Below are positions 5,463 through 37,800 of a stretch of DNA of 64,000 nt, piece by piece (the first letter of the stretch is position 1; every line of letters starts with the position of its first letter). The DNA comes from Candidatus Oxydemutator sp. (lineage in GTDB: Bacteria > Pseudomonadota > Gammaproteobacteria > Poriferisulfidales > Oxydemutatoraceae): contig OZ241883.1 of NCBI GenBank assembly GCA_965203445.1, positions 1,248,001-1,312,000 of the forward strand, given 5' to 3'. A program made the translations under genes and the position numbers. The notes below the pieces were generated by a model that had not been told where the DNA came from, did no database searches, and saw nothing but the letters and a program-made list of their open reading frames with translations.

Positions 5463-5552
5463 ACGTAATGATCAAAGAGCGCATAGACAGGTGGCGTGCT
5501 TCGGCGTCCACAATGCAAAATGCGATGAACCCGTGAGTCTCGTCCTCCCTGC

Positions 5553-13027: not shown

Positions 13028-13121
13028 CGGCGCGCGGGCGCGCGCTAAAATCCGGGTTGCGTATCAAGGTGTAAGCTTTGGGGCTATATTGGACTCATGT
13101 TTTGAACAAGCCACCGCCCTG

Positions 13122-14684
13122 ATGATAGACAAAAGACTGAAAGAACTCTGGCCCCGCCTTCAGGGCAAAAAGCCGCATATGCCGCAGTTTTTGAAGGCGG
13201 TGCGCTTACAAGGTCTCCGAGGTATCCGCAACCTGCGGGTTGTGTTCGATTATCCGGTGTGTGTCATTGCCGGAATGAACGCCAGCGGCAAGTCCACCGT
13301 CCTGCTCGCCGCCGCCTGCGCCTACGAGGTGCCGGGCGCCGGGGCCAGGGATTACGTACCTTCGACGCTTTTTCCAAACTATGTCCCGAAGGGGGGCGCC
13401 CGTGGCGACGACCGCCCCGAGATTTCCATTGAATACGAGTATTCCGAAGGTAACGATGCTATTTTGATGGCTTGGCGGCGAAGAAAAGGCTGGACGCGCA
13501 GCTTTTTTGGGCGCAAAAAACAACGTCAACCGAAACGTGCGGTTTATCTGCGCACGCTCAGCAATCTGAGCAGCCCGCCGGAGGTGCGCGGCGTGCTCAG
13601 CATGTCGCATCTCAAGACTGTGCCCGAGGAACATCCACTGACGGCCGCGCAAATAGATTTTGCACAGAGTATGCTGCCTTTCCGTTACCGGGAGGTCGTA
13701 CGGCTCTCCAAGACGGGCAAAGGCGGTAGGGACCTTCTTTTTGCGACGCATAAGGACGACACCGCGTATTCCGAGTTGCACATGGCCGCCGGCGAGCGCG
13801 CCATCCTGCGTCTGTCCGGAGAAATCGCGCAACTGCGTGGTGCGCTGGTGTTGATTGATGAGATCGAGGCAGGCCTGCATCCGTGGGCGCAGCAACTGCT
13901 GATGCTCCAGTTGCAGCAGCTGGCCTTGCGCAACGACTTGCAGGTTATCGTCACTTCCCACAGCCCCGTCGTGCTGGACGCCGTTCCCGCCAACGCGCGT
14001 ATCTTTCTTGATCGAGATGAACACGGGGACGTCGAGGTTCGTCCGCCGTACCAGGACATCATCCAGAATGCCTTCTACGGCCGTTCCGTCAACGTGCTCA
14101 ATGTGCTTTGCGAAGATGAGGTTGCGGAGGGCATCCTGCGCGGCGTGTTGGATTATCTGGCCCCCAGGATGTTCATTCAGCACGATCAGATCCGCATTGG
14201 TTGTGACACGAGCGCCCAGGAATTTCCGGCCCATGCCGCGGCTTTTAAGAGAATTGATCTGCTTGACAATTTCGTTTTTGTCCTGGATGGCGATCAGCGT
14301 GACAAAGATGTAGAAAAAAGACTGCGCGCGCGTGCCGGCGACTGGCGAGGTCCCGTGCTTTTCCTGCCCGGCGATGTCGCGCCCGAGGTGTGGCTTTGGG
14401 AGTGCCTGGAGCGCAACCGGTCCATGTATGCGGAGCCTTTGGGCACCGATCCAGGCAATTTCGGCACGCTTATGGAGCAGTCGAGCGATACTTATAGCTT
14501 GGCTTCCGAGACCGAGGCGGAAATCGCCAAGTTCAAGCTTGGAGACCTCGCCGGAAAACTTAGCCGACCGGTTCCGGCAGTCTGTCGCATTGTTGCCTTT
14601 CAGGAGGTGCGACGGAAAGACAGCGCGCTCCGACCGCTGGCTGATCAACTCGCCGACGCCATCCAGGCGTGGCGGGCTGCCTGA
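13122..14684 (+). CDS. ABC/AAA ATPase fused to a TOPRIM-like domain (OLD/AriAB-like putative nuclease)
   Basis: Walker A GMNASGKS, signature MAAGE, Walker B LIDEIEAGLHP, H-loop TSHSP; C-terminal LCEDE and VLDGD. Confidence 0.75.
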   Translation: MIDKRLKELWPRLQGKKPHMPQFLKAVRLQGLRGIRNLRVVFDYPVCVIAGMNASGKSTVLLAAACAYEVPGAGARDYVPSTLFPNYVPKGGARGDDRPEISIEYEYSEGNDAILMAWRRRKGWTRSFFGRKKQRQPKRAVYLRTLSNLSSPPEVRGVLSMSHLKTVPEEHPLTAAQIDFAQSMLPFRYREVVRLSKTGKGGRDLLFATHKDDTAYSELHMAAGERAILRLSGEIAQLRGALVLIDEIEAGLHPWAQQLLMLQLQQLALRNDLQVIVTSHSPVVLDAVPANARIFLDRDEHGDVEVRPPYQDIIQNAFYGRSVNVLNVLCEDEVAEGILRGVLDYLAPRMFIQHDQIRIGCDTSAQEFPAHAAAFKRIDLLDNFVFVLDGDQRDKDVEKRLRARAGDWRGPVLFLPGDVAPEVWLWECLERNRSMYAEPLGTDPGNFGTLMEQSSDTYSLASETEAEIAKFKLGDLAGKLSRPVPAVCRIVAFQEVRRKDSALRPLADQLADAIQAWRAA

Positions 14685-14849
14685 TTATTACTGGAAGCAG
14701 ACGGCGTCATCTGGGGATGCACTTTGCCATTTCCCGGCGAACATAGAGTGCGTTTCGTTAAGCCGTTCGGCAATGACGCACCAAGGGGGGAGGCGATGAT
14801 GACGAACGTAAGAGTGCGGCAATGACGAAGAGAAGGCCGGCGGCGAGGT

Positions 14850-14858
14850 TGTTATAAT
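14850..14858 (+). promoter_or_regulatory. Extended -10 promoter (TGnTATAAT) for the membrane protein-hldD unit
   Basis: TGTTATAAT about 25 bp upstream of ATG 14884. Confidence 0.5.
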
Positions 14859-14883
14859 CCCCTTTCCCGCCACCCGAATCGTT

Positions 14884-15615
14884 ATGAACGACGCCATGCC
14901 AGCCCGCGAACTGCCGCCCGCGCTTTATTTGGGCTTGCCGTTGCTGGTCGTCTTGATTCCTTATGCGGCGCAGTGGGTCGGCGGGCCGCAGCCCTGGCTT
15001 TACCACGAATCGGGCGCCATCGAGTGGGTTACGGTGGTGTTTCTGCTGGTCGGGATTTTTTACGCGGCCGGCGCGTTGCGGTTCGTAATCGGCCGCGGTG
15101 TGCGTTGGCTTTGCGGCTGGGTCGTGCTGCTGCTGTTAGGTGCGGTGTATTTCGCCGGGGAAGAGTTGAGCTGGGGGCAGCACGTCTTTCAGTGGGGCAC
15201 GCCCGAGGAGTGGCGACGGCTCAACGACCAGCAGGAGACGAATCTGCACAACGTGCATGCGCTCTTCGATCAGCTGCCGCGGGCGCTGCTGACGTTGGGC
15301 GCGCTGGTCGGCGGCGTCGCGGTGCCGCTCTACCGCCGCTTTAGCGCGCAGCGCTGGCGCATGTTGTCGGGCACGGACGGCGACGCCTGGCCGTACTGGC
15401 TGTGGCCGACCTGGGCGTGCCTGCCGGTGTCGGTCGCGGTTCTCGTCGTCAGCCCCTTCGATAAACTGGTCGAGTCGTCCGGCGCGGCCGCGCCGGATTG
15501 GCTCTACATGAAAGGTGGCGAGCTGAAGGAGTGCCTGTTGGCGCTGTTCATCCTGATTTACCTGCTGTCGCTGCATCGCCGCCTGCGCGCGCGCGCCCGG
15601 CAGACACCGTGCTGA
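14884..15615 (+). CDS. Integral membrane protein of unknown function
   Basis: About six hydrophobic segments, with GEELSWGQH and NDQQETNLHN motifs. Overlaps the hldD start. Confidence 0.75.
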   Translation: MNDAMPARELPPALYLGLPLLVVLIPYAAQWVGGPQPWLYHESGAIEWVTVVFLLVGIFYAAGALRFVIGRGVRWLCGWVVLLLLGAVYFAGEELSWGQHVFQWGTPEEWRRLNDQQETNLHNVHALFDQLPRALLTLGALVGGVAVPLYRRFSAQRWRMLSGTDGDAWPYWLWPTWACLPVSVAVLVVSPFDKLVESSGAAAPDWLYMKGGELKECLLALFILIYLLSLHRRLRARARQTPC

Positions 15616-16818: not shown

Positions 16819-19800
16819 GTGGTGGCATCGTGCACGCTCGTCAGTCTTATAATAGGCGGCATGTCCTTGTTCTCTCGACAACTCCACCATGCATACGTGG
16901 CAAGTGTGCTATGCGTTGTGGTTTCTGGTGTCGGGAGCACCGCTTCGGCACAAACGGGCGACACCTCTTCGACACCGACGGTCAGCACCGCCGACTACGA
17001 CGCCAACCGCAACGGCCTGATAGAAGTATCAAGCCTGGAGCAACTCAACGCAATCCGCTGGGACCTGGACGGCGACGGCGTGCCGACGAGAGCCGGCGCC
17101 GCGTCATACGCCGTGGCCTTCCCGAACACGGGCGGAGTAGTCTGCCGTACGACGACGACGGCGACGGTTTCCTGCAAAGGCTACGAGTTGGTATCGGACC
17201 TGGACTTCAACACAGGCGATCCAAGCACACGCACCGACGACCTGTATTACAACGACGGCGCCGGTTGGGAACCGATTGGCACTTGCCGCAGACGGTGGTG
17301 TTCTGCATCCGACTCGTATGCCGCGACGTTTCGTGGCAACGGCCACGTCGTTCACAGTCTGTTCATCCGGCGTCTAGGTGAGAATTTTGTCGGGTTGTTC
17401 GATTCACTGGGTAACGGAAGCAGGATAGAGGAGGTGAGTCTGCGCGACGTGAGTGTTGAGGGGCGCGAGTATGTTGGCGGCTTGGTGGGGGCTGTTCCTT
17501 GGGACGTAACCGATGTAACGATTTCCACTAGCCATGTGACCGGCATGGTCAGCGGGACAGACTATTATGTAGGCGGCCTCGTGGGGTTCAACAGTGGAGA
17601 GATAGTCGCCAGTTACGCGACGGGCACGGTCAGCGGGACGGGGGAGTTTGTAGGCGGCCTTGTGGGGCGCAACGATGGAGAGATAGTCGCCAGTTACGCG
17701 ACGGGCGCGGTCGGAGGGACGAATTTTTTTGTAGGCGGCCTCGTGGGGCAGAATTATGGAAAGATAGCCGCCAGTTATGCGACGGGTGCAGTCAGAGGAA
17801 CGAATTTTTATGTAGGCGGCCTCGTGGGGAGGAATTCTGGAAAGATAGCTACCAGTTACGCGACGGGCGCGGTCAGTGGTGGGATGGGTGATGTAGGCGG
17901 CTTCGTGGGGAGGAATTCTGGAAAGATAGCTGCCAGTTACGCGACGGGCGCGGTCAGCGCGAGCGGGACAGGCTTGTTTGTGTATGTAGGCGGCCTCGTG
18001 GGGGGCAACATGGGAGAGATAGCCGCCAGTTACGCGACGGGCGCGGTCAGCTGGAGCGGGACAGGCTTGTTTGTGGATGTAGGCGGCCTCGTGGGGTACA
18101 ACTATATACTCATGGGAGATATAGCCGTCAGTTACTGGGATACGCTGACCTCCGGCCGTGGATCGAGCGACGGCGGCACGGGCAAGAAGACCTTCGAGTT
18201 GCGTTCGCCCACGACGTACACCGGGATATACGCCGCCTGGAACGTGGACGTGGACGGCGACGGCGCAGCCGACGCCCCGTGGGATTTCGGCACCAGCACC
18301 CAATATCCGACGTTGCGGCATGGCCACGGCGCCGCGTCGGTAGCGTTGCAGCGGCCATCGCAGCCCGTGATTTCGGCGGACGGCAGTTTGCGCGGTTTGT
18401 CGGTCGGCGGTGCCACGTTGTCGCCTGATTTCCGTGCAGCGGTTACGTCGTATGACGCGGCGTCCGAATATGACGTGGTGACGGTTACGGCGCTGGTGGC
18501 GGACGCCGGGGCACGTGCCACGATCAGTCCGGAGGACGCGCAAAGCGATATTGACGGCCATCAGGTGAGACTGGCGGCGGGCACGACCGATACGGTAACG
18601 ATTACGGTAACGGTAACGGCGGCGGACGGTTCGGCGACGGAGTACGTCGTGGTGGTCGGTCATGGGGACGCGCCGTCGCCGCTTGAAGACACGGCGCCGG
18701 CGTTCGAGATCGCGGCGACGACGCTGACGTATACGGCCGGTGCATCGGTGGACCAGACGCTGCCGGCGGCGCGCGACGGCGATGGCGAGTTGCGCTATAG
18801 GCTGACCAACGCGGGCAGCACACCGACGCTGACACTCCCGTCCGGTTTGGAGTTCGACGCGGCGACACGCCGGTTGCACGGCAGGCTGACGACGGCGTCG
18901 TCGTCGGCGCGCTACACGCTGACGGCCACGGACGGCGACGGCAACCTCTCGCCCGCCGACGCCGCCCGGATGTCCATAGCAATCATAGTGTCGCCCGACC
19001 ACGACGCCAACCGCAACGGCCTGATAGAAATATCGAGCCTGGAACAACTCAACGCAATCCGCTGGGATCTGGATGGCAACGGCGTGCCGACGAGAGCCGG
19101 CGCCGTGTCATACGCCGCGGCCTTCCCGAACGCGGGCGGAGTAGTCTGCCGTACGACGACAGGGACGGTTTCCTGCAAAGGCTACGAGCTAATATCGGAC
19201 CTGGACTTCAATACCGGCGATGAGGGCACGCGCACCGACGACCTGTACTACAACAACGGCGCTGGCTGGGAACCTATCAGCGCTTGTGATCGGCCTTATT
19301 CCTATCCCTATCTTGTTTCTTGCCCGGGATACGCTGCGACGTTCAGCGGCAGCGGCCACGTGATCTACAACCTGTTCATCCAGCGTCCGCGTGAGAAATA
19401 TATCGGACTGTTCGGTGTTCTGATGGAAGCAAGCAAGATAGAGGGAGTGAAACTGCGCGACGTGAGCGTTGTGGGAGGTGGGTATGTTGGTGGCTTGGCA
19501 GGGAGTCTTGGTACTGATGGAGGCTGGTTCCAGTCGGTCCCTGGAGGAGAGATAACCGATAGTTACGCAGCGGGTAAGGTAAGCGGAGAGTATTCTGTAG
19601 GTGGCCTCGTGGGGTTCAACAATGGAGATATAGCTGCCAGCTACGCGATGGTCTCGGTCAGCGCGACGGAGGAAAAGTATATAGGTGGTTTCGTAGGGAT
19701 CAACTTGGGAGATATAGCCGCCAGTCACGCGACGGGCGCGGTCAGCGGGACGGAGTATGTAGGTGGCCTCGTGGGTCTCAACAAAGGAGAGATAGCCGCC

Positions 19801-22800
19801 AGCTACGCAACGGGTGCGGTCAGCGGGAGGGATGCAGGCGACATCGTGTGGTCCAAAACGGGAGAGTTTGTAGGTGGTCTCGTGGGGTACAACTGGCGAG
19901 GTGGAAGGATAGCCTCCAGTTACGCGACGGGCGCGGTCAACGGGACGGATAATTATGTAGGCGGCCTCGCGGGGCACAACAGTGGAGATATAGCCTCCAG
20001 TTACGCGACGGGCGCGGTCAACGGGACGGATAATTATGTAGGCGGCCTCGTGGGGATCAGCTGGGGAGGGATAATCGCCAGTTACGCGACGGGCGCGGTC
20101 GGCGGGAAGGATGAGGTAGGCGGCCTCGTGGGGTACAACTGGCGAGGTGGAAGGATAGCCTCCAGTTACGCGACGGGCGCGGTCAACGGGACAGACTATG
20201 TAGGCGGTCTCGTGGGGTTCAACAGGGGAGAGATAGCCTCCAGTTACGCGACGGGCGCGGTCAGCGGGACAGATTATGTAGGTGGCCTCGTGGGGGACAT
20301 CAGCATCGTGTGGTGGTGGTTGGGAAGAACAGTAACCGCCAGTTATTGGGATACGTTGACCTCCGGCCTTGAAAGGAGCGACGGCGGTACGGGCAAGAAG
20401 ACCTTCGAGTTGCGCTCGCCCACGACGTACACCGGGATATACGCCGCCTGGAACGTGGACGTGGACGGCGACAGGGCCGCCGACGCCCCGTGGGACTTCG
20501 GCACCGAGACCCAATATCCGATATTGCGGCATGGCCACGGCACCGCGTCGGTGGCGTTGCAGCAGTCGGCGCAGCCCGTGATTTCGGCGGACGGCAGTTT
20601 GCGTGGCTTGTCGGTCGACGGTGCCACGCTATCGCCCGATTTCCGTGCGGCGGTGACATCGTATCGCGTGGCGTCCGAGTATGACGTGGTTACGGTCACG
20701 GCGTTGGTGGCGAATGCTGGTGCGCGTGCCGAGATCAGTCCAAAGGACGCGCAAAGCGACGTTGACGGTCACCAGGTGAGACTGGCGGCGGGCACGACCA
20801 GCACGATAACGGTGACGGTTACGGCTGCGGATGGTTCGGCGACGGAGTACGTCGTGGTGGTCAGTCATGAAGGCGCGGTGCCGCCGCTCGAAGACACGGC
20901 ACCAGTGTTCGATGTCGCGGCGACGACGCTGACGTATATGGCCGGTGCATCGGTGGACGAGACGCTGCCGGCGGCGCGTGGCGGCGATGGGGAGTTGCGC
21001 TATAGGCTGACGGACGCTGGGCTGACCAACGCGGGCAGCACACCGACGCTGGTGCTGGCGCTCGCGCCCGGTTTGGAGTTCGACGCGGCATCGCGCCGGC
21101 TGTACGGTAGATTGACGACGGCGTCGTCGTCGGCGCGTTACACGCTGACGGCCACGGACGGCGACGGCAACCTCTCGCCTGCCGACGCCGCCCGGACTTC
21201 CATAGCCATCGTAGTGCTGCCTGACCACGATGCCAACCGCAACGGCCTGATAGAAGTATCGAGTCTGGAACAACTCAACGCGATCCGCTGGGATCTGGAC
21301 GGCGACGGCGTGCCGGCGAGAGCTGGTGCCACGTCGTACACCGCGGCCTTCCCGAACACGGGCGGAGTAGTCTGCCGTACGACGACGATGGTCTCCTGCA
21401 AAGGCTACGAGTTGGTATCGGATCTGGACTTCAACACGGGCGACCCGGGCACGCGCACCGACGATCTTTACTACAACAACGGTGCCGGCTGGGAACCGAT
21501 TGGCGTTTGTGATCGGTCTTCTTTTATTCGTTTTCTTGTTCCTTGTCCGGGGTACGCTGCGACATTCAGCGGCAACGGCCACGTGATCTACAACCTGTTC
21601 ATCCGGCGTCCGGGTGAGGACTATATCGGATTGTTCGGTGTTCTGATGGCAAGCAAGATAGAAGAAGTGGGGCTGCGCGACGTAAGCGTTGTGGGAAATG
21701 CTTACGTTGGTGGCTTGGCAGGGCATCTTCGTGATGCCGTCACCTGGCGTAAGTCGGGCCTTGGAGGAGAGATGATAACCGCCAGTTACGTGACGGGCGC
21801 GGTCCGCGGGACAGGCTGGCATGTAGGCGGCCTCGTGGGGGAAAATGATGGAAAGATAGCCTCCAGTTATGCAGCGGGTTCGGTCAGTGGGGCAGACGGG
21901 TATGTAGGCGGCCTCGTGGGGCTCAACGGATACGGAGGAGAGATAGCCTCCAGTTACGCGACGGGCACGGTCAGCGGGACGGAGAGTGTTGTAGGCGGCC
22001 TCGTGGGGGGCAGTTGGGGAAAGATAGTCGCCAGTTACAGTTACGCGACGGGCGCGACCAGCCGGCGCGAGACAGGCGGCTGGTATGAGCTTATAAGCAT
22101 AGGCGGCCTCGTAGGGAAAAACGGTCATACGGGAAAGATAGTTGCCAGTTATGCGACGGGCGCGGTCAGCGGGGCAGGCCGGTTTATTTATGTAGGCGGC
22201 CTCGCGGGGGTCAACAATGGAGGGATAACCGCCAGTTATTGGGATACGTTGACCTCCGGTCGCGGATCGAGCGCCGGTGGCACGGGCAAGAAGACCTCTG
22301 AACTGCACTCGCCCACGACGTACACCGGGATATACGCCGCTTGGAACGTGGACGTGGACGGCGACGGCGCAACCGACGCCCCGTGGGACTTCGGCACCAG
22401 CACCCAATATCCGACGTTGCGGTATGGCCACGGCGCTGCATCGGTGGCGTTGCAGCGGCCGTCGCAGCCTGTGATTTCGGCGGACAGCGGTTTGCGCGGT
22501 TTGTCGGTCGGCGGCACCACCCTACGGCCCGATTTCCGTGCGGCGGTTACGTTGTATCACGCGGTGTCCGAGTATGACGTGGTGACGGTTACGGCGGTAG
22601 TGGCGGACGCCGGGGCGCGTGCGGAGATCAGTCCGGAGGACGCGCAAAGCGACGTTGGCGGTCACCAGGTGAGACTGGCGACGGGCGCTGTCAGCACGGT
22701 AACGGTAACGGTAACGGCTGCGGACGGTTCGGCGACGGAGTACGTTGTGATGATCAGGCGCGTGGACGTGGCGCCGCTGTTCGACGTCGCGGCGACGACG

Positions 22801-25800
22801 CTGACGTACGTGGCCGGCGCATCGGTGGACGAGACGCTGCCGGCGGCGCGCGGCGGCGACGGCGAGTTGCGCTACGCGCTCACGGATGCTGAACTGACGG
22901 ACGCGGGCAGCACGCGGACGCTGACGCTCCCGCCCGGCCTGGAGTTCGACGCGACGGCACGCCGGCTGCACGGCAGGCTGACGACGGCGTCATCAATGGC
23001 CCGCTACACGCTGACGGCCACGGACGGCGACGGCAACCTCGCGCCCAGCGACGCCGCCCGGATGTCCATAGCAATCGTAGTGTTGCCCGACCACGACGCC
23101 AACCGCAACGGCCTGATAGAAATATCGAACCTGGAACAACTCAACGCAATCCGTTGGGATCTGGACGGCGACGGCGTGCCGACGGAAGCCGGCGCCGCGC
23201 CGTACGCCGCGGCCTTCCCGAGCACGGGCGGAGTAGTCTGCCGTACGACGACGGCGACGGTTTCTTGCAAAGGCTATGAGCTAATGTCGGACCTGGACTT
23301 CAACACGGGCGATGCGAACACGCGCACCGACGACCTGTATTACGACGACGGCGCCGGTTGGGAACCCATCGGCACTTGTGACGGAACGTATGAGTGCCAT
23401 GCGTTCGATCCCGGTTATGCCGCGACGTTCCGCGGCAATGGCCACGTCATCCGCAACCTGCTCATCCGGCGCCCGGATGAGCGCCGTGTCGGACTGTTCG
23501 GTTATCTGGCTGGTGGCAGCAGGATAGAGGAAGTCGGGCTGCGCGGCGTGCACGTCGAGGGCCGCAAATATGTCGGCGGCTTGGCGGGGCAGTCCGGCGT
23601 GCGCTACGCGACCGGGACAGCAGTAGTCTCGATAGGCTCCAGTTACGCGACGGGCGTGGTCAGCGGGACGTCGGTCGTGGGTGGCCTCGCGGGTTGGAAC
23701 CTTGGAGGAGAGATAACCGCCAGTTACGCGGCGGGCATGGTTTACGGCGGGGACATGACAGGTGGTCTCGTGGGGGTTCACGAACGGAAGCTGACCGCCA
23801 GTTCCGCAACGGCCACGGTCGGCGGGAGAGATTGGGCAGGCGGCCTTGTGGGGAGCAACGAGGGAGAGATAACCGCGAGCTACGCGACGGGCGCGGTTGG
23901 CGGAAGGGATAACGTAGGCGGTCTCGTGGGGTACAACTGGGGACGGATAGCCGCCGGTTACGCGACGGGTGCAGTCGGCGGAAGGGATAATGTAGGCGGC
24001 TTTGTGGGGGGCAACCCCTCCTCTGGGGAAATAGTCGCCAGTTACGCGACGGGCGTGGCCGGCGGGCGGGATGAGGTAGGCGGCCTCGTGGGGCACAACT
24101 GGGGACGGGTAGCCGCCAGTTACGCGACGGGCAAGGTCAGCGGGGAGAGATTTGCAGGCGGCTTCGTGGGGCACAACCACACCTGGGGAGCAATAACCGC
24201 CGGTTACTGGGATACGTTGGCCTCCGGCCTTGCATGGAGCGACGCCGGCACGGGCAAGAAGACCTTCGAGTTGCGCTCGCCCACGACGTACACCGGGATA
24301 TACGCCGCCTGGAACGTGGACGTGGACAGCGACGGCGCTGCTGACGCCCCGTGGGATTTCGGTACCAGCACCCAATATCCGACGTTGCGGTATGGCCACG
24401 GCGCCGAGTCGGTGGCGTTGCAGCGGCCGTCGCAGCCCGTGATTTCGGCGGACAGCGGTTTGCGCGGCTTGTCGGTCGGCGGCACCACCCTACGGCCCGA
24501 TTTCCGTGCGGCGATTACGTTGTATCACGCGGCGTCCGAGTATGACGTGGTTACGGTTACGGTGCTGGTGGCGGACGCCGGTGCGCGTGCGCAGATCAAT
24601 CCGGAGGATGCGCAAAGCGACGTTGACGGTCACCAGGTGAGACTGGCGACAGGCACGACCAGCACGGTGACGATAACGGTAACGGCGGCAGACGGTTCGG
24701 CGACGGAGTACGTCGTGATGATCAGGCACGAGGACGAGGCGCCAGTGTTCGACGTCGCGGCGACGACGCTGACGTACGTGGCCGGCGCGTCGGTGGACGA
24801 GACGCTGCCGGCGGCGCGCGGCGGCGACGGGGAGTTGCGCTACACGCTCACGGACGCTGGGCTGACGGACGCGGGCAGCACGCGGACGCTGACGCTCCCG
24901 CCCGGCCTGGAGTTCGACGCGACGGCACGCCGGCTGCACGGCAGGCTGACGACGGCGTCGTCAACGTCGCGCTACACGCTGACGGCAACGGACGGCGACA
25001 GGAACCTGTCGCCGAGCGACGCCGCCCGGACGTCCATAGCAATCATAGTGTTGCCTGACCACGATGCCAACCGCAACGGCCTGATAGAAATATCGAGCCT
25101 GAAACAACTCAACGCGATCCGATGGGACCTCGACGGCGACGGCGTGCCGACGGCAACCGGCGCCACGCCATACGCCGCGGCCTTCCCAAACGCGGGCGGA
25201 GTAGTCTGCCGTGCGACGACGACGAGGACGGTGTCCTGTAAGGGCTACGAGTTGGTATCGGATCTGGACTTCAACACGGGCGATCCAAGTACGCGCACCG
25301 ACGACCTGTATTACAACGCCGACGCCGGCTGGGAACCTGTCGGTGCTTGTGATCGGCCTTATATTGATCCTTTTCTTCCCGATCATGTTCCTTGCCCAGG
25401 ATACGCTGCGACGTTCAGCGGCAATGGCCACGTGATCTACAACCTGTTCATCCGGCGCCCGGGCGAGGACTATGTCGGACTGTTCGGTGTTCTGGGTAGC
25501 GGAAGCAGGATAGAGGGAGTGGGGCTGCGCGACGTGACAGTCAGCAGCGGAAAGGGAGCGGTAGGCAGCCTCGTGGGGGTCAACTATGAGGGAGAGATAG
25601 TCGCCAGTTACGCCACGGGCGCGGTCAGCGGGACGGGGTATGACGTGGGCGGCCTCGTGGGATCGAACGGTTCGACAATAACCGCCAGTTACGCGACGGG
25701 CGCGGTCAGCGGGCCGGATGTTGCGGGCGGCCTCGTGGGGTATAACTGGGAGGGAGAGATAGTCGCCAGTTACGCGACGGGTGCGGTCGGCGGAGAGAAC

Positions 25801-28800
25801 ATTGCAGGTGGTCTCGTGGGGTTCAACTGGGGAGATACGGCTGTCCGTTCCAGTTATTGGGACACGTCTGCCTCCGGCCTCGAGTGGAGCGACGGCGGCA
25901 CGGGTAGGAAGACCTTCGAGTTGCGCTCGCCCACGACGTACACCGGAATTTACGCCGCCTGGAACGTGGACGTGGACGGCGACGACGTCGCCGACGCCCC
26001 ATGGGACTTCGGCACCAGCACCCAATATCCGGTATTGCGGTATGGTCGCGGCGCCGCATCGGTGGCGTTGCAGCAGTCGTCGCAGCCCGTGATTGCGGAG
26101 GACGGCAGTTTGCGAGGCTTGTCGGTCAGCGGCACCACGCTGTCGCCCGATTTCCGTGCGACGGTTACGTCGTATCGCACGGTGTCCAAGTATGAAGACA
26201 TGGTGACGGTCACGGCGCTGGTGGCGGACGCCGGTGCGCGTACCGAGATCAGTCCGGAGGACGCGCAAAGCGACGTGGAAGGTCACCAGGTGAGACTGGC
26301 GATAGCCGCCGTCAGCACGATAACGGTTACGGTAACGGCTGCGGACGGTTCGCCGACGGAGTACGTCGTGATGATCAGGCACGAAAGTGCCGCGCCGCTG
26401 TTCGACGCCGCGGCGACGACGCTGACGTACGTGGCCGGTACAACGGTGGACGAGACGCTGCCGGCGGCGCGCGGAGGCGACGGAGAGTTGCGCTACACGT
26501 TGATGGATGCGTTGGCTGACAGGCTGATCGGCGCGCTGACCAACGTGGGCATCACGCAAACACTGGTGCCGACGCTGACGCTGCCGCCTGGCCTGGAGTT
26601 CGACGCGGCATCGCGCCGGCTGCACGGCAGTCCGACGACGGCGTCGTCCATGGCGCGCTACACGCTGACGGCCACGGACGGCGACGACGACCTCTCGCCC
26701 GCCGACGCCGCCCGGACGTCCATAGCCATCGTAGTGTCGCCCAACCACGACGACAACCGCAACGGCCTGATAGAAATATCGAGTCTGGAACAACTCAACG
26801 CGATTCGTTGGGATCAGGATGGCGACGGCGTGCCGGCGGAAGCCGGTGCCGCGTCATACGCCGCGGCCTTCCCGAGCGCGGGCGGAGTAGTCTGCCGCAC
26901 GACGACGGGGGTAGTTTCCTGCAAAGGCTACGAGTTGGTATCGGATCTGGACTTCAACACGGGCGATCCGAGCACGCGCACCGACGACTTGTACTACAAC
27001 AACGGCGCCGGCTGGGAGCCCATCGTCGGTTATGCCGCGACGTTCCGTGGCAACGGCCACGTCATTGACAACCTGTTCATCCGGCGTCCGGGCGAGGATC
27101 GGATTGGCCTGTTCGGTTTTCTGGCCGATGGCGGCAGGATAGAGAGAGTGGGGTTGCGCGGCGTGAGCGTCGTGGGCAAAGATAGCGTTGGCAGCCTGGT
27201 GGGGGTGCTGACCGGCGTGCGCTACGCGAGCAGAACAGCAATAGCCTCGATAGTCTCCGGTTATGCGACGGGTACGGTCGGCGGGGAGGATAATGTAGGC
27301 GGCCTCGTGGGGAGCAACTGGAGAGGAGGAGAGATAACCGCCAGTTACGCGACAGCCAAGGTCAACGGGACAGGCCAGTATGTAGGCGGCCTTGTGGGGG
27401 GCAACTGGAAGAGAGGAAGGATAGCCGCCAGTTACGCGACGGGCGCGGTCAGCGGGACAAAGTATGTAGGCGGTCTCGTGGGGGTCAGCTACAACGGGGG
27501 AGAGATAGCCGCCAGTTACGCCACGGGTGCGGTCAGCGGGACAAGTCGTGTAGGCGGCCTCGTGGGAGGCAACGGGAGATATGCAGAGATAGTCGCCAGT
27601 TACGCGACGGGCGCGGTCAGCGGGAGGGATCATGTAGGCGGCCTCGCGGGGATCAGCGCGGGAGAGATAGCTGCCAGTTACGCCACGGGTGCGGTCAGCG
27701 GGACGGAGGATGTAGGCGGCCTTGTAGGAGGGAACGGCAACGTGCGGTGGTTGAGCAAAATAGAAACCGCCAGCTACTGGGATACGCTGACCTCCGGCCT
27801 GGAAAGGAGCGACGGCGGCACGGGCAAGAAGACCTTCGAGTTGCGTTCGCCGACGACCTACACCGGGATATACACCGCCTGGAACGTGGACGTGGACGGC
27901 GACGATGTTGCCGACGCCCCATGGGACTTCGGCACCAGCACCCAATATCCGGTATTGCGGTATGGCCACGGCGGCGCGTCGGTTTCGTCGCAGCGCCCGG
28001 CGCAGCCCATGATTTCGGCGGACGGCAGTTTGCGTGGCTTGTCGGTCAGTGGTGCCATGCTTTCTCCAGATTTCCGTGCGGCGGTTACGTCGTATGACGC
28101 AGCGGCCGGCCACGATATGGCTACAGTCACGGCAGTGGTGGCGGACGCCGGTGCGCGTGCCGAGATCAGTCCGGAGGATGCACAAAGCGATATTGACGGC
28201 CACCAGGTGAGACTGGCGACGGGCGCTGCCAGCACGGTTACAGTTACGGTAATGGCGGCGGACGGTTCGGCGACGGAGTACGTCGTGATGATCAGTTATG
28301 AAGATACGGCGCCGGTGTTCGACGTAGCGGCGACGACGCTGACGTACGTGGCCGGCGCATCGGTGGACGAGACGCTGCCGGCGGCACGTGGCGGCAACGG
28401 CGAGTTGCGCTACACGTTGATGGATGGGTTGACTGGCAGGTTGACCAGTGCGCTGACCAACGTGGATGTCACGCAGACACTGGCGCGGACGCTGACACTC
28501 CCGCCCGGCCTGGAGTTCGACGCGACGTCACACCGGCTGCACGGCAGGCTGACGACGGCGTCATCAATGGCCCGCTACACGCTGACGGCCACGGACAGCG
28601 ATGGCAACCTCGCGCCCAGCGACGCCGCCCGGACATCCATAGCCATCGTAGTGTCGCCCGACCACGACGGCAACCGCAACGGCCTGATAGAAGTATCAAG
28701 CCTGGAACAACTCAACGCGATCCGCTGGGATCTCGACGGCAACGGCGTGCCGACGGCAACCGGCGCCGCGTCGTACGCCGCGGCCTTCCCGAGCACGGAT

Positions 28801-31800
28801 GGAGTAGTCTGCCGCACGGCGACGGAAGTGGTTCCCTGCAAAGGCTACGAGTTGGTATCGGATCTGGACTTCAACACGGGCGATCCAAGCACGCGCACCG
28901 ACGACCTGTATTACAACAACGGCGCCGGTTGGGAACCCATCGGCGGTTATGCTGCGACGTTCCGCGGCAACGGCCACGCCATCCGCAACCTGTTCATCCG
29001 GCGTCCGAGCGAGGATCGTATCGGGCTGTTCGGTTCTCTGGCCGGCGACAGCAGGATAGAGAGAGTGGGGCTGCGCGGCGCGAGCGTCGTGGGGAATGAT
29101 GACGTTGGCGCTCTGGCGGGGCAGGCCGGTGCGCAAGACGCGACCGGGACGACGATAATCGCCAGTCACGCGACGGGCGCGGTTCGCGGGGAAGAGAGGA
29201 TAGGCGGCCTTGTGGGGCGGAACTTGGGCAGGATAGCCGCCGGATACGCGATGGCCACGGTCGGCGGAGCATGGGACGTGGGCGGTCTCGCGGGTTGGAA
29301 CTCCGGCGAGATAGTCGCCGGTTACGCGACGGGCACGGCCAGCGGGCGATTGAATACCGGCGGCCTCGTGGGCGCGAACTCGGAGGGAGGAACGATAGCC
29401 GCCAGTTACGCCACGGGCGCGGTCGGCGGACAGTCGAATACGGGCGGCCTCGTGGGCGCGGACTCGAAAGGAGGGCCGATAACCGCCAGCTACTGGGATA
29501 CGATGACCTCCGGTCGTGCATGGAGCGCCGGCGGCGCGGGCAGGAAGACCTTCGAGTTGCGCTCGCCCACGACCTACACCGGCATCTATGCCGCCTGGAA
29601 CGTGGACGTGGACGGCGACGGTGCAGCCGACGCCCCGTGGGACTTCGGCACCAGCACCCAATATCCGGTATTGCGGTATGGCCGCGCTGCCGCGTCGGTG
29701 TCGCGGCAGCGCCCGGCGCAGCCCATGATTTCGGCGGACAGCAGTTTGCGCGGCTTGTCGGTCAGCGGTGCCACGCTTTCTCCCGATTTCCGTGCGGCGG
29801 TGACGTCGTATCGTGCGGTGGCCGACCGCGACGTGGTTACGGTTGCGGCGCTGGTGGCGGACGCCGGTGCGCGTGCCGAGATCAGTCCGAGGGACGCGCA
29901 AAGCGACGTTGACGGCCACCAGGTAAGGCTGGCGACGGACACCACCGACACGGTTACGGTAACGGTAACGGCGGCGGACGGTTCGGCGACGGAATACGTC
30001 GTGATGATCAGGCGCATGGACGTGGCGCCGGTATTCGACGTAGCCGCGACGACGCTGACGTACGTGGCCGGCGCATCGGTGGACGAGACGCTGCCGGCGG
30101 CGCGCGACGGCAACGGCGAGTTGCGCTACACGTTGATGGATGGGTTGACTGGCAGGTTGACCGGTGCGCTGACCAATGTGGGCGTCACGCAGACACTGGC
30201 GCGGACGCTGACACTCCCGCCCGGCCTGGAGTTCAACGCGGCGACACGCCGGCTGCACGGCAGCCTGACAACGGCGTCATCAACGTTGCGCTATACGCTG
30301 ACCGCTGTGGACGGCGACGGCAACCTCGCGCCCAACGACGCCGCCCGGACATCCATAGCAATCATAGTGCTGCCCGACCACGACGGCAACCGCAACGCCC
30401 TGATAGAAATATCGAGCCTGGAGCAACTCAACGCAATCCGGTGGGATCTGGATGGCGACGGCGTGCCGACGGAAGCCGGCGCCGCGTCATACGCCGCGGC
30501 CTTCCCGAGTACGGATGGAGTCGTCTGTCGCACAACGACGAGTGTGGTTCCCTGCAAAGGCTACGAGCTAATATCGGACCTGGACTTCAACACGGGCGAT
30601 CCAAGCACGCGCACCGACGACCTGTACTACAACGACGGCGCCGGCTGGGAACCGATTGGCACTTGTAGCTGGTGGTGTTTTGCATCCGATGGGTATGTCA
30701 CGACGTTCCGTGGCAACAGCCACGTCATTGACAACCTGTTCATCCGGCGTCCAGATGAGGATCGTATTGGACTGTTCGGTGTTCTGGGTAGCGGAAGCAG
30801 GATAGAGGGAGTGGGGCTGCGCGATGCGCGCGTCGAGGGAGATGATTATGTTGGTGGCTTGGCAGGGCTTGCTGTTGGTAGAACACCGATAATCTCCACT
30901 AACTACGTGACGGGCGCGGTCAGTGGGATGGATGATGTAGGTGGCCTCGTGGGGTACAACAATGGAGAGATAACCGCCAGTTACGCGACGGGCGCGGTTC
31001 GCGGGACGAATGCAGTAGGCGGCCTCGTGGGGTTCCACAGGGGAGAGATATTCGCCAGTTACGCGACGGGCGCGGTTCGCGGGAGAGATTCTGTAGGCGG
31101 CCTCGCGGGTCGCAACGAGAGTGTACAGATAGCCGCCAGTTACGCGACGGGCGCGGTTCGCGGGAGATATAATGTAGGCGGCCTCGTGGGGAAGAACGAT
31201 GTAGAGATATTCGCCAGTTACGCGACGGGTGTGGTTAGTGGAACGGGTGATGTAGGCGGCCTCGTGGGGGATAACTGGCGGGGAGAGATAGCCGCCAGTT
31301 ACGCGACGGGCGCGGTTAGTGGAACGGATGATGTAGGCGGCCTCGTGGGGTACAACAATGGAGAGATAACCGCCAGTTACGCGACGGGCGCGGTTCGCGG
31401 GAGATATAATATAGGCGGCTTCGTGGGACGGGGGAGAGGAACAGTAACCGCCAGTTACTGGGATACGCTGACCTCCGGACGAGACAGCAGTGCCGACGGC
31501 ACGGGCAAGAAGACCTTCGAGTTGCGTTCGCCGACGACGTACACCGGGATTTATGCCGCCTGGAACGTGGACGTGGACGGCGACGAGGCCGCCGATGCCC
31601 CGTGGGGCTTCGGCACCGAAACCGAATATCCGATATTGCGGTATGGCCACGGCACCGCGTCGGTGGCGTTGCAGCGCTCGGCGCAGCCGGTGATTTCGGC
31701 GGACAGCAGTTTGCGTGGCTTGTCGGTCGTCGGAACCACCCTGTCGCCCGATTTCCGTGCGGCGGTTACGTCGTACGACGCGGCGTCCGAGTATGACGTG

Positions 31801-34800
31801 GTTACGGTCACGGCGTTGGTGGCGGATGCCGGTGCGCGTGCCGAGATCAGTCCGGATGACGCGCAAAGCGACGTTGACGGCCACCAGGTGAGGCTGGCGG
31901 CGAGTGCCACCGGCACGGTTACGATTACGGTAACGGTAACGGCTGCGGATGGTTCGGCGACGGAGTACGTCTTGGTGGTTGGTCATGAGGACGTGCCGCC
32001 GCCGCTCGAAGACACGGCGCCGACGTTCGAGATCGCGGCGACGACGCTGACGTATACGGCCGGCGCATCGGTGGACGAGACGCTGCCGGCGGCGCGCGGC
32101 GGCGACGGCGAGTTGCGCTACACGTTGACTGATGGGCTGACGGACGCCGGGCCGACCAACGCGGGCAGTACGCCGACACTGACGCTGACGCTGCCGCCCG
32201 GCCTGGAGTTCGACGCGGCGACACGCCGGCTGCACGGCAGGCTGACGACGGCGTCATCAACGTCGCGCTACACGCTGACGGCTGTGGACGGCGACGGCAA
32301 CCTCGCGCCCAGCGACGCCGCCCGGACATCCATAGCCATCGTAGTGCTGCCCGACCACGATGCCAACCGCAACAGCCTGATAGAAATATCGAGCCTGGAG
32401 CAACTCAACGCAATCCGTTGGGATCTGGACGGCAATGGCGTGCCGACGGAAGCCGGCGCCGCGTCGTACGCCGCGGCCTTCCCGAGCACGGATGGAGTCG
32501 TCTGCCGCACGACGACGGGAGTAGTCTCCTGCAAAGGTTACGAGTTGGTATCGGATCTGGACTTCAACACGGGCGATCCAAGCACGCGCACCGACGACCT
32601 TTACTACAACAACGGCGCCGGCTGGGAACCTGTTGGCCAATGCCGCAGAACATTGGGGTGGTATTCGTGTTCTGCATCCGATTCGTATGCCGCAACGTTC
32701 CGTGGCAACGGCCACGTCATTCACAACTTGTTCATCCGGCGTCCGGGTGAGAATTATGTTGGGCTATTCGGTTATCTCAGAGGAGGCAGGATAGAGGGAG
32801 TAGGGCTGCATGACGTGCGCGTCGAAGGACATAGTGATGTCGGTGGTTTGGCAGGGAGGGCTGATGCTTGGTTAAATTTTGGGATTTGGACTAGTATAAC
32901 GATAATCTCCAATAGCCACGTGACGGGCGTGGTCAGCGGGACAGGCCGGAGTGTAGGCGGCCTCGTGGGATTCAATCGGGGAGAGATAACTGCCAGTTAT
33001 GCGACGGGTGTGGTCAGCGGGACAGGCCGGTATGATGCAGGCGGCCTCGTGGGGGACAACAGGGGAGAGATAACTGCCAGTTATGCGACGGGCGTGGTTA
33101 GTGGAACGGATAACGCAGGCGGCCTCGTGGGGCTCAATCGGGGAGAGATAACTGCCAGTTATGCGACGGGCGTGGTTAGTGGAACGGATAACGCAGGCGG
33201 CCTCGTGGGGATCAACGATGGAGAGATAGCTGCCAGTTACGCGACGGGTGCGGTCCGCGGGGTAACTGATGTAGGCGGCCTCGTGGGGTTCAATCAGGGA
33301 GAAATAGTCGCTAGTTATGCGACGGGCGCGGTCAGCAGGACAGTTTGGTATGGGTATGTAGGTGGCCTCGTGGGGTACAACAACTCGAATGGAAAGATAG
33401 CCGCCAGTTACGCGACGGGCGCGGTCCGCGGGAGATGGCGCGAGGGCGGCCTCATAGGGAACAACGGCAGTGCTGTGCGGTCGTGGAGAGGAACAGTAAC
33501 CGCCAGCTACTGGGACAAGCTGACATCCGGACATGCATGGAGCGACGGCGGCACGGGCAAGAAGACCTTCGAGTTGCGTGCGCCCACGACGTACACCGGG
33601 ATTTATGCCGCCTGGAACGTGGACGTGGACGGCGATGAGGCCGCTGATGCCCCGTGGGGCTTTGGCACCGAAACCGAATATCCGATATTGCGGTATGGCC
33701 ACGGCACCGCGTCGGTGGCGTTGCAGCAGTCGTTGCAGCCCGTGATTTCGGCGGACAGCAGTTTGCGTGGCTTGTCGGTCGTCGGAACCACCCTGTCGCC
33801 CGATTTCCGTGCGGCGGTTACGTCGTACGACGCGGCGTCCGAGTATGACGTAGTTACGGTCACGGTGTTGGTGGCGGACGCCGGTGCTCGTGCCGAGATC
33901 AGTCCGGATGACGCGCAAAGCGAGGTTGACGGCCACCAGGTGAGGCTGGCGGCGGGCGCTACCGGCACGGTTACGATTACGGTAACGGTAACGGCTGCGG
34001 ATGGTTCGGCGACGGAGTACGTCGTGGTGGTCGGTCATGAGGACGTGCCACCGCCGCTCGAAGACACGGCGCCGACGTTCGAGATCGCGGCGACGACGCT
34101 GACGTATACGGCCGGCGCATCGGTGGACGAGACGCTGCCGGCGGCGCGTGGCGGCGACGGCGAGTTGCGCTACACGTTGACTGATGGGCTGACGGACGCC
34201 GGGCCGACCAACGCGGGCAGCACGCCGACACTGACGCTGACGCTCCCGCCCGGCCTGGAGTTCGATGCGGCGACGCGTCGGCTGCACGGCAGTCTGACGA
34301 CGGCGTCGTCAACGTCGCGCTATACGCTGACGGCCACGGACGGCGACGGCAACCTCGCGCCCAGCGACGCCGCCCGGTTATCTGTAGCCATCGTAGTGCT
34401 GTCTATGCCCGATCACGACGGCAACCGCAACAGCCTGATAGAAATATCGAGCCTGGAACAACTCAACGCGATCCGTTGGGATCTGGATGGCAACGGAGTA
34501 CCGACGGAAGCCGGCGCCGCATCGTACGCCGCGGCCTTCCCGAGCACGGATGGAGTCGTCTGTCGCGCGACGACGGCGACGGTTCCCTGTAAAGGCTACG
34601 AGCTAATATCGGACCTGGACTTCAACACGGGCGATCCAAGCACGCGCACCGACGACCTGTACTACAACAACGGCGCCGGCTGGGAACCGATTGGCACTTG
34701 TAGCGGATGGTTGTGGTGGCCGCGTTGTTCTAAATCTGATGGGTATGCCGCGATGTTTAGCGGCAACGGCCACGTGATCTATAACCTGCTCATCCAGCGT

Positions 34801-37800
34801 CCGGGTGAGGACAATATCGGGTTGTTCGGTGTTCTGGGGATCGGAGGCAAGATAGAGGAAGTGGGGCTGCGCGACGTGAGTGTTGTGGGAGATGGTATGG
34901 TTGGTGGCTTGACAGGGAGGATTCATAATAGCCTGATCTGGGGTAGTTGGTCGGACCCTGGAGGAGAGATAACCGCCAGTTACGCGACGGGCGTGGTTAG
35001 TGGAACGGAATTTGTAGGCGGCCTCGTGGGAGGCAACAATGGAAGAATAGCCGCCAGTTCCGCGACGGGCGCGATCAGCGGAGAATTCAGTGTAGGCGGC
35101 CTCGCGGGGATCAACGATGGAGAGATAGCTGCCAGTTACGCAACGGGCGCGGTCCGCGGGACACGGGGCGTGGGTGGCCTCGTGGGGAGCAACATCGGAG
35201 AGATAGCCGCCAGTTCCGCGACGGGTGTGGTCAGTGGGACGGATGATGTGGGCGGCCTCATGGGTTACAGCCAGGGAGATATAGTTGCCAGTTACGCGAC
35301 GGGCGCGGTCCGCGGGACACGGGGCGTGGGTGGCCTCGTGGGAAGTAAATGGCAAGGAGATATAGCTGCCAGTTACGCGACGGGCGCGGTCCGCGGGGCG
35401 GAGGAGGTGGGCGGTCTCGTGGGGATCAACCATAGTGGAGAGATAGTCGTTAGTTATGCGACAGGCGCGGTCCGCGGGACATGGGGCGTGGGCGGCCTCG
35501 TGGGGATTCACGCAAAGGGCCGAGGAGATGGAGGGATAGCTGCCAGTTACGCGACGGGTGCGGTCAGTGGGGCACGGGGCGTGGGCGGCCTCGTGGGGGG
35601 CAGCACAGGAGAGATAGCTGCCAGTTACGCGACGGGTGCGGTCAGTGGGACAGATGATGTAGCGGTAGGGGGCCTCGTAGGGGGCGTTGGCATCGCGCGA
35701 CGGTGGTCGAGAGGAGCAGGAGTCGTGTGGTGGACAGGAACAGTAACCGCCGGCTACTGGGATACGTTGACCTCCGGACGTGGATCGAGTGCCGGCGGCA
35801 CGGGCAAGAAGACCTTCGAGTTGCGTTCGCCGACAACGTACACCGGGATTTATGCCGCCTGGAACGTGGACGTGGACGGCGACGAGGCCGCCGATGCCCC
35901 GTGGGGCTTCGGCACCGAGACCGAATATCCGATATTGCGGCATGGCCACGGCACTGCGTCGGTGGCGTTGCAGCAGTCGTTGCAGCCCGTGATTTCGGCG
36001 GACAGCAGTTTGCGCGGTTTGTCGGTCGGCGGTGCCACGTTGTCGCCTGATTTCCGTGCGGCGGTGACGTCGTATGACGCGGTGGCCGACCGCGACGTGG
36101 TTACGGTTGCGGCGTTGGTGGCAGGTGCCGGTGCGCGTGCCGAGATCAGGCCGAGGGACGCGCGAAGAAACGTTGACGGCCACCAGGTGAGGCTGGCGGC
36201 GGGCGCTACCGGCACGGTTACGATTACGGTAACGGTTACGGCGGCGGACGGTTCGGCGACGGAGTACGTCGTGGCGGTCAGTCGTGAGGGCACGGCGCCG
36301 GTGTTCGACGTGGCGGCGACGACGCTGGCGTATGTGGCCGGCGATCTGGTGGACGAGACGCTGCCGGCGGCGCGCGGCGGCGACGGGGAGTTGCGCTACA
36401 CGTTGACTGATGGGCTCACGGACGCCGGGCCGACCAACGCGGGCAGCACGTCGACGCTGACGCTCCCGCTCGGCCTGGAGTTCGACGCGGCATCGCGCCG
36501 GCTGCACGGCAAGCTGACGACGGCGTCGTCAACGTCGCGCTATACGCTGACGGCCACGGACGGCGACGGGAACGTCTCGCCGAGCGACGCCGCCCGGACG
36601 TCCATAGAAATTGTGGTCACGCCCGACCACGACCGCGACGATGACGGCCTGATTTCGATCACGACGCTGGCACAGTTGAACGCGGTACGTTGGGATCTGA
36701 ACGGCGACGGCGTGTCCGCCGATCCCGGATACGCCGCGGCCTTCCCCCACGCGGCCGCGGGCATGGGCTGCCCTGCATCCGGTTGCACGGGCTACGAACT
36801 GGACAACGACCTGGACTTCGACACCGACGGAAACGGCACCATCAACGCGAACGATGGTGCATTGAGTTGGGGCGCGGGCGCCGACGCCGGCAAAGGTTGG
36901 GCGCCCATCGGTGGTTCGGGTTCGTTTGACGGCAGTTTTCGTGCCACGTTCATGGGCAACGGCCACGTGGTCAAAAACCTGTTCATAAATCGGTCGTCGG
37001 ACAAGTGGGTCGGCTTGTTCGGGCGCGTCTTCGCCGGCAGGATCGAAGGGTTGGGGCTGACCGGCGCGGTCGTCATCGGTGATTTCTACGTCGGCGGACT
37101 GGTCGGGTATAACCACGGGGAGATCATCGCGAGCTACGCCAACGCCACCGTCAGCGGCCGCGACCAAGCCGGTGGATTGGTGGGCAGAAACAAGAAGAAG
37201 ATCATCGCCAGTTACGCCAACGCGACCGTCAGCGGCGGGCGCGCCGTCGGCGGTCTGGTGGGCAGAAACAAAGGAGAGATCATCGCCAGCTACGCCAGCG
37301 CGGCCGTTCGCGGCGAGCGCGCCGTCGGCGGCCTGGTGGGCAGAAACAAGAGGAGAATCGCGGCCAGTTACGCCAGGGGCACCGTGCACGGGCGCAAATA
37401 CGTCAGCGGTTTAGTGGGCCGAGGGGGATCCGTGTTCAGCTACTGGGATACCAACGTTTCCAATCTGCCCCCCTATATCGGGGGCGCCGGCAGGACGACC
37501 GGCGAGCTGCAAACGCCGACGAGTTATACCGGCATCTACGCCCACTGGAACATGGACCTGGATAACAGCACGGTGACCGGTGTCGGCGGCAGGGACGACC
37601 CGTGGGACTTCGGCACGAGCAGCCAATATCCGGTGCTGCAATACCGCGGCCTCAGCACCGCCACCCAGTTCGCCGCGCAGCCGTTCGGCGACGCCGACCT
37701 GCGCTCCCTGGTGCTTTCGGTCGGCGTGCTGGAACCGGGCTTCGACGCCGCTATCACCAGTTACGCGGCGGTCGTCGGTTATGCGGCGTTGGTCGGCACG

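Follow-up and report, generated by a model that had tools for sequence, protein, structure and literature searches.

A giant GLUG-repeat gene of Candidatus Oxydemutator with four hypervariable codons per repeat: a probable case of concerted evolution combined with diversifying selection

Architecture of the giant gene

The DNA described here, referred to as the window, is a stretch of 64,000 nucleotides from Candidatus Oxydemutator sp. (assembly GCA_965203445.1, contig OZ241883.1, positions 1,248,001 to 1,312,000, forward strand). It contains an intact gene for a giant exported, multi-module protein of ~7,336 aa (16861..38871), and all GLUG repeat units lie inside its single open frame (16819..38871). 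All coordinates are those of the window, and the gene and its features are on the plus strand. Within the units, four codons are shown statistically to be under diversifying selection, as judged from sequence, with a nonsynonymous to synonymous rate ratio (omega) of 2–9 depending on the model against ~0.4 elsewhere. An earlier note on this DNA described the repeat units but missed this selection, which is the main driver.

The open reading frame (ORF) tool placed the start of the gene at GTG 16819; the ATG at 16861 is the preferred start, as the N-terminus of a related protein, P0123, resembles it. The segment 16861..16950 probably encodes a Sec signal peptide with an A-x-A site at its end, as read by eye from the translation. 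Ten variable modules follow (16993..36624), identified by Pfam matches to module 1, alignment of the modules, and the predicted fold of module 8. The modules start at 16993, 18997, 21223, 23089, and 25057 (modules 1–5) and at 26743, 28660, 30376, 32353, and 34411 (modules 6–10). Each is laid out as an N-cap, a GLUG array, and a C-cap, together making one β-helix domain, followed by a cadherin-like domain and a putative Ig domain. Module 1 matched Glug, Cadherin-like, and He_PIG in Pfam, and the remaining modules were assigned by alignment.

The GLUG arrays are found at 17473..18141 (module 1, 8 units), 19486..20352 (module 2, 10 units), 21706..22245 (module 3, 6 units), 23572..24213 (module 4, 8 units), 25561..25863 (module 5, 4 units), 27187..27783 (module 6, 7 units), 29104..29499 (module 7, 5 units), 30850..31464 (module 8, 8 units), 32839..33516 (module 9, 8 units), and 34900..35763 (module 10, 10 units). 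The unit counts that the earlier note gave for these ten modules are exact, and the variation in rung number from 4 to 10 that it described is borne out. An eleventh module, unlisted there, is a divergent, non-variable terminal module (36625..38112) with 5 units (37090–37449), recognized from parsing, codon use, and relatives. It serves as an internal control; it uses ordinary codons, and its variable positions are kept in the related protein P0002 and nearly so in P0121. The module 11 positions are basic (R-N-K) and may reflect a fixed ligand or a structural role.

In module 1, the N-cap carries a hypervariable loop between two cysteines (17281..17313). Equivalent loops are present at 19282–19326, 21505–21549, 23374–23412, 25345–25398, 30661–30690, 32638–32682, and 34696–34740; the loop is missing in modules 6, 7, and 11 and is aromatic-rich elsewhere. 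Its codons are mostly T-ending in modules 2, 3, and 5, and a disulfide probably closes it. The protein terminates in a domain at 38113..38868 with two dockerin-like motifs (38665 and 38776). Neither Pfam over 38113–38868 nor NCBIfam assigned this domain to a curated family. Atlas look-alikes scored 0.95–0.96 and belong to unnamed clusters, mostly of Bacteroidota, with Dockerin_1 on 15–19% of members. From these resemblances, an export or anchoring domain is possible. The giant gene also stands apart in its strong G-over-C skew, which is restricted to this gene, reaches 0.28 per kb between 17000 and 36000, and is accounted for by the G-rich unit codons.

The GLUG unit and its predicted fold

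Parsing yielded 79 GLUG units over the 11 modules. The repeat period determined by Tandem Repeats Finder is 78–81 bp with a median of 81, corresponding to 26–27 codons per unit, rather than the ~66 bp proposed in the earlier note; the 63 nt motif quoted there as the general unit occurs exactly only once (17986). Each of the 79 units is unique both as DNA and as protein. Small indels are present around the variable codons, as had been reported, and all of the indels in the units are in frame and clustered at these positions. When units were grouped by similarity, first and last units grouped by position across the modules (8/10 and 10/10, respectively) and may therefore be considered caps. Column statistics were computed from the 54 internal units of modules 1–10, leaving out the 10 first units, the 10 last units, and the 5 units of module 11; unit 3.4 was re-parsed manually.

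The GLUG profile (PF07581) matched module 1 with 81 bits (E 3e-23) and the C-terminal 823 aa with 44.5 bits, where the curated cut-off is 20.5. Folding of module 8 from a single sequence gave a predicted local distance difference test (pLDDT) score of 52, hence a model based on an alignment was used. The alignment held 87 sequences comprising the 11 window modules and 76 of 91 modules from related loci. The resulting model of the module 8 domain (pLDDT = 94.7) places strands every 26–27 residues with one coil per unit. Its closest structural matches (VIA Z) were 7uvk (28.4, residues 1017–1327; root mean square deviation 2.6 over 267 aligned residues), 3n6z (27.6), and 7jgj (23.8, residues 774–1084). 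Other β-helices were well below these at Z ≤19.5, and Foldseek concurred. A sequence search of the PDB with module 8 returned no matches at E up to 1.

The matched ranges of 7uvk and 7jgj coincide with the NTD2 β-helix boundaries of IgA1 proteases given in part of PMC9637739, and a link between 3n6z and GLUG is mentioned in a portion of PMC4021314. From the model, each unit is thus shown to form one coil of an IgA1-protease-NTD2-like β-helix, as the earlier note anticipated in regarding the units as rungs of a β-solenoid. The profile and the NTD2-like fold both place the protein among the GLUG-repeat β-helix proteins. It shares the Glug match and the fold with the M26 IgA1 proteases and differs from them in having no HExxH, eleven tandem copies, and a variable number of rungs. 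A protease of the M26 type was rejected; HExxH is absent from the whole protein and the fold match is limited to NTD2.

Four codons per unit are hypervariable

Variability is concentrated in four codons, or slots. Two of them (A1 and A3) flank an Asn codon, and the other two (B-2 and B-1) precede the sequence VGG. By predicted secondary structure the four slots sit inside an 11-residue stretch of each coil and therefore stack along one side of the helix, probably pointing outward. Indels reduced the number of units scored to 36 for A3, 36 for B-2, and 45 for B-1. The four codons do vary as the earlier note had it; the claim that they vary freely is too broad, since third bases are largely kept (A1 is C-ending in 38/54 units and B-1 is T-ending in 30/45) and neither Pro nor Cys is found among the 171 slot residues. 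Tyr, Trp, and Phe make up 23% of these residues compared to 8% across modules 1–10.

In a tree-free comparison, diversity at the first two bases of the slots was 0.54–0.75, whereas 16 four-fold silent sites averaged 0.26 and did not exceed 0.51. Codon models estimated an omega of 3.8–8.7 at the slots and 0.41–0.51 elsewhere. An unguided mixture model assigned exactly A1, A3, B-2, and B-1 of the 26 columns to the class with omega above 1 (twice the log-likelihood difference, 2dL, 77.7; posterior 0.92–1.00). The silent rate at the slots was not significantly raised. Omega remained above 1 when the transition to transversion ratio (kappa) was freed (2.9) and when whole-codon jumps were allowed (2.0, 2dL 9.4). 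Across eight neutral simulations, which used 1–26 independent segments and in six cases included recombination, omega was 0.57–1.17. The cadherin/Ig part, which is equally recombinant, showed no signal of selection (2dL 0.8). A signal was present in the N-cap (2dL 37.6) at the two-cysteine loop and at positions equivalent to the slots. At the Asn codon that separates A1 from A3, the silent base has a diversity of 0.27, as in the flanks, which argues that the slot region is not old, unconverted DNA.

Homogenization and exchange of units

The units favor codons that 13 other window genes seldom use; there, GTA, GGA, AGT, ATA, and CTC account for 4%, 5%, 2%, 16%, and 19% of their codon families. 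In the units these codons hold 80–100%, and module 11 uses ordinary codons; thus, recent common descent and not codon optimization is indicated. Codon optimization was accordingly rejected as the source of silent conservation. The earlier note saw synonymous conservation in the constant parts of the units. It is real, and the non-repeat parts of the modules show it to the same degree, with a silent divergence per identical-residue codon of 0.197 within and 0.232 between modules for the units and 0.19–0.22 for the remainder. With equal divergence, the rungs all coalesce about as deep as the modules do, so that either homogenization is continuing or the rungs expanded very recently from a single one. 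As the sequence comparisons show, the constant codons are alike through recent descent and homogenization and are conserved no more than the rest of the modules.

Units differ on average by 8.6 of 60 nt within modules and by 10.0 between modules (p = 5e-5), and pairs with shared derived alleles fall in one module in 166 cases compared to 98 expected. Exact repeats of 64–71 nt are confined to modules 2, 8, and 9, and repeats between arrays reach at most 36 nt. The longest exact matches within arrays (71, 68, 64, and 61 nt) are all shorter than one unit. Slots are mostly unique (A in 50/54 and B in 49/54 units), and chance would produce only ~0.8 and 0.5 identical three-codon pairs. Nine unit pairs have an identical slot. 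Seven of these are within one module, and a search for identical slots across modules, which the earlier note had proposed, found the other two (9.5/10.3 and 8.6/10.4, slots of 9 nt). None of the nine pairs also shares the adjoining slot on either side, with one pair a single base off, and in each of units 8.7, 2.5, and 10.3, slot A is that of one unit and slot B that of a different one. The pairwise homoplasy index (PHI) test was significant over the non-slot columns (p = 0.013). These results uphold the proposal of exchange through the constant flanks. The sequence statistics show that slots are shuffled over distances of less than one unit and, for the most part, inside a single module.

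Recombination extends to the modules themselves. Trees of the N-part and the C-part of the modules reject each other in approximately unbiased (AU) tests (p ~1e-4 and <1e-70), and the PHI test gives p = 0.002 within both the N-part and the C-part. By these statistics the modules are shown to be mosaics that exchange segments. The simpler scenario in which units follow the phylogeny of their modules does not apply, as the AU tests reveal no single module phylogeny. An assembly artifact was also considered and deemed unlikely, since the longest exact repeat in modules 1–10 is only 110 nt.

Relatives of the giant gene

Protein searches scored 8,000 and 7,999 candidates. A close relative, P0001, is identical to modules 8–10 at 54/59 to 60/60 residues in the constant windows, and none of its eight slot A peptides is found among the window's 55. 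P0002 matches module 11 and the C-terminus at 681 of 748 residues and keeps all four scored module 11 slots. The module that precedes its module 11 is a patchwork with best matches to modules 2, 10, 7, 6/7, and 8. P0121 and P0123 (64–65%) present the same architecture with different rung counts; as one ends and the other starts inside an array, they are possibly one interrupted giant gene.

A genome scan identified 56 GLUG loci with 26–54% identity and none above 54%. Of these, 28 are from Dehalococcoidia and three are named for sponge-associated taxa; we presume that most of the 56 come from sponge symbionts. Among ten related ORFs with at least nine parsable units, omega exceeds 3 at the same slots in three, two of them in locus L010 and one in L037. 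The GLUG genes of L010 (Ca. Porisulfidus) and L037, with an omega of 3.2–6.8 at the same four slots, are candidates for the same regime. The window gene is the most homogenized of the ORFs compared. When 26 window ORFs were compared with the 56 loci, synteny was limited to generic families. A six-frame scan of the window and the 56 loci for reverse transcriptase (RT) and recombinase motifs, made with patterns of limited sensitivity, gave one match, in L001. This RT-like motif lies near position 5529 in a 462-codon frame ~4.5 kb upstream of a GLUG module, and we take it to be group-II-intron-like from its motif.

Genomic neighborhood

The giant gene is preceded by hldE-like, waaF, and hldD genes and followed by genes for a heptosyltransferase and a Kdo kinase and by waaA, tolC, and thiC. 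Its location among genes for the inner core of lipopolysaccharide (LPS) indicates that the host is Gram-negative. A promoter scan upstream of the gene produced matches at chance level only, and Rfam gave no match anywhere in the 64-kb window.

Between waaF and hldD there is a lower-GC pair of genes (12825–15615) encoding an ABC-type ATPase and a 243-aa ORF. The ATPase has HEC-04 as its best PADLOC match (E 3e-38) and is also PtuA-like; the 243-aa ORF has no family match. From these similarities the pair is a probable defense locus. Two type II DNA methyltransferases are encoded in low-GC stretches (4317–5462 and 45771–47078), with no partner endonuclease recognized in the window for either. 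An RHS/YD-repeat protein (3–4178) is open at the window start and contains a 12/24-bp tandem repeat (3543–3620).

Interpretation

The gene is best explained, with a probability of about 0.72, as a two-tier coding minisatellite in which concerted evolution and diversifying selection act together on a giant exported multivalent binding protein. Each unit of 26–27 codons supplies one NTD2-like coil with its four slots stacked on one side. The units have been recently homogenized and are shuffled over less than a unit length, mostly within a module, with modules swapping segments, and at the four codons amino-acid-changing substitutions exceed silent ones 2–9 fold. The agent may be ordinary homologous recombination, by unequal crossover or short gene conversion, together with slippage within the gene; neither a dedicated enzyme nor a donor store would be needed. 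The binding surface may consist of an aromatic-rich stripe together with the two-cysteine loop and the long inserts that the first and last rungs carry. One chain could thereby carry ten binders of differing specificity, spaced by cadherin/Ig domains, with selection coming from shifts in host or microbial ligands.

Several points weigh against this explanation. For repeats that undergo conversion, omega estimated on a tree is not strictly valid, as a section of PMC3890296 cautions, and tree-free and simulated controls were used for this reason; the neutral simulations number only eight. At the slots kappa is 1.4–1.7 compared to 5.7–5.9 elsewhere, and 24 simulations gave 4.1–9.0, so a model of simple point mutation under one uniform omega is an incomplete fit. 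The PHI test over all 26 columns is not significant (p = 0.66). The within-module signal is modest given that 30 of the 54 internal units have their nearest neighbor in another module. In seven of the ten related ORFs, omega at the same slots is 0.5–1.4. A possible account of the transversion excess, and the one preferred here, is that selection for radical residue changes would act together with whole-codon shuffling.

The same genetics may serve another purpose, in which the slots vary to evade phages, grazers, or host receptors. We regard this as the most credible alternative, albeit one that is distinctly less probable than a binding role. The protein is probably exported and highly exposed, its slots have turned over completely with respect to the close relative P0001, and its gene is located among LPS-core genes. 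Against an escape function, the cadherin/Ig spacers and module 11 are without diversification, and the slots are enriched in Tyr, Trp, and Phe. Binding surfaces tend to be rich in these residues.

A more ambitious possibility is an antibody-like repertoire in which a mutator acting in trans, or a donor store elsewhere, rewrites the first two bases of the four codons of each rung. Nested recombination within populations would then give each cell its own set of ten binders. We consider this improbable; the as yet unexplained transversion excess and retention of third bases at the slots give it some room.

A specific form of such a mutator, a diversity-generating retroelement (DGR) or similar system that rewrites AAC or AAT template codons into the slots in trans, is less probable still. 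The retention of third bases across amino acids would fit it, as would the 17 closest unit pairs, where bases 1–2 of A1 differ in 76% and base 3 in 6%. C is rare at slot positions 1–2, transversions are in excess, and A1 alone is best fitted, by ~1 log unit, by a jump model that keeps the third base. Silent A is retained in 133/145 cases (92%), compared to 378/458 (83%) for C and 297/347 (86%) for G, which argues against adenine mutagenesis. This argument is weakened by context, as the three silent consensus adenines all precede G, where the BPP-1 enzyme errs least according to part of 10.1101/2025.03.24.644984. Silent changes include 72 C>T and 28 G>A and are thus not confined to adenine. G-ending codons at A3 (16/36) and B-2 (12/36) are not obtainable from AAY templates, and none of the 54 units has AAC at A1. 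C occurs at base 2 of A1 in only 2/54 units, compared to 26.8% in NAC contexts in an excerpt of PMC12875486. Over the four slots the DGR-like model (−570.1) was worse than whole-codon replacement (−561.3) or a free kappa (−556.4). No RT was found in the 93 of 174 window ORFs scanned or by the six-frame motif scan, and no template copy was present in the window.

Programmed assembly from silent donor cassettes elsewhere in the genome, in the manner of the variable lymphocyte receptors (VLRs) to which the earlier note compared the units, is very unlikely as a mechanism. The patchwork units, the conserved flanks, and the two identical 9-nt slots in different modules would be expected from such a process. 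However, the gene is complete, and no copy of the unit exists in the 16.8 kb upstream or the 25 kb downstream. Within the 64 kb, copies of the constant halves outside the gene amount to three isolated weak matches for the 18-nt half and one for the 24-nt half. Nearly all slots are unique, the silent divergence of the flanks is that of ordinary paralogues, and no deaminase or recombinase was recognized in the scanned ORFs. Finally, the view that the slots are neutral, either unconstrained loop positions or old sequence skipped by conversion tracts, draws on the indels clustered at the slots and on the related genes in which the same positions vary at an omega near or below 1, and it is largely refuted by the sequence data because an average neutral site cannot exceed silent diversity as the slots do and because silent diversity at the Asn codon is no higher than in the flanks.

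Comparison with known systems and significance

The nearest parallel for the preferred explanation is provided by the WD40 repeats of the HNWD/NWD proteins of Podospora, which are fungal NOD-like receptors. Portions of PMC4986451 and PMC13449251 describe concerted evolution with gain, loss, and shuffling of repeats and four selected positions per repeat. The window gene likewise varies in repeat number and shuffles within and between copies, here among paralogous modules and relatives rather than population alleles, and diversifying selection falls on a few fixed positions (four of 26 columns). It differs in being bacterial and exported, in having a β-helix in place of a propeller, and in nesting two repeat tiers in one gene. 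The definition of high internal conservation (HIC) requires at least 80–85% repeat identity; the mean amino acid identity here is lower, at 0.68–0.71 (0.75–0.78 without the slots), and 0.85 is reached by 2% of pairs. No NTPase or death domain, and no NACHT or NB-ARC domain with an effector, was matched by Pfam or NCBIfam in module 1 or the C-terminal part, and modules 2–10 align to module 1.

PRDM9 binds DNA through its zinc fingers, one finger per triplet. Its minisatellite varies in copy number, undergoes conversion, and accumulates non-synonymous changes at set codons, as outlined in parts of PMC3890296 and PMC5120217; the rungs of the GLUG protein, in contrast, are predicted to make a continuous surface on an extracellular protein. 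The transcription activator-like effectors (TALEs) of Xanthomonas are a bacterial array that evolves through recombination, loss of repeats, and substitution at fixed slots, and in which the codons of the repeat-variable diresidues are conserved about as well as their flanks (PMC5512977, in part). The slots of the window gene are far more variable than the flanks, and no features of DNA binding or injection were seen. With the VLRs of agnathans the likeness is one of analogy, in that both are solenoids in which the number of rungs and the capping loop vary and the modules are patchworks. The incomplete germline gene, flanking donor cassettes, and deaminase of VLR assembly, as given in a segment of PMC3308329, were not seen within the 64-kb window. 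By analogy, the gene appears to work like the HNWD repeats and PRDM9, yet it is a member of neither family. It is a bacterial, exported, two-tier β-helix version of a homogenized-repeat regime with four selected positions.

No description of such diversification was found in a search of mainly open literature on GLUG repeats and sponge symbionts, judged from titles and the starts of abstracts. The finding would extend a regime of fungal non-self receptors to an exported bacterial β-helix with two nested repeat tiers. Multi-module GLUG relatives are widespread in uncultured bacteria, including sponge-named taxa, and the poorly studied GLUG domain gains a testable role, that of a binding scaffold with variable positions. 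With four slots on a capped helix, it may represent a naturally occurring scaffold for binders, akin to designed repeat proteins.

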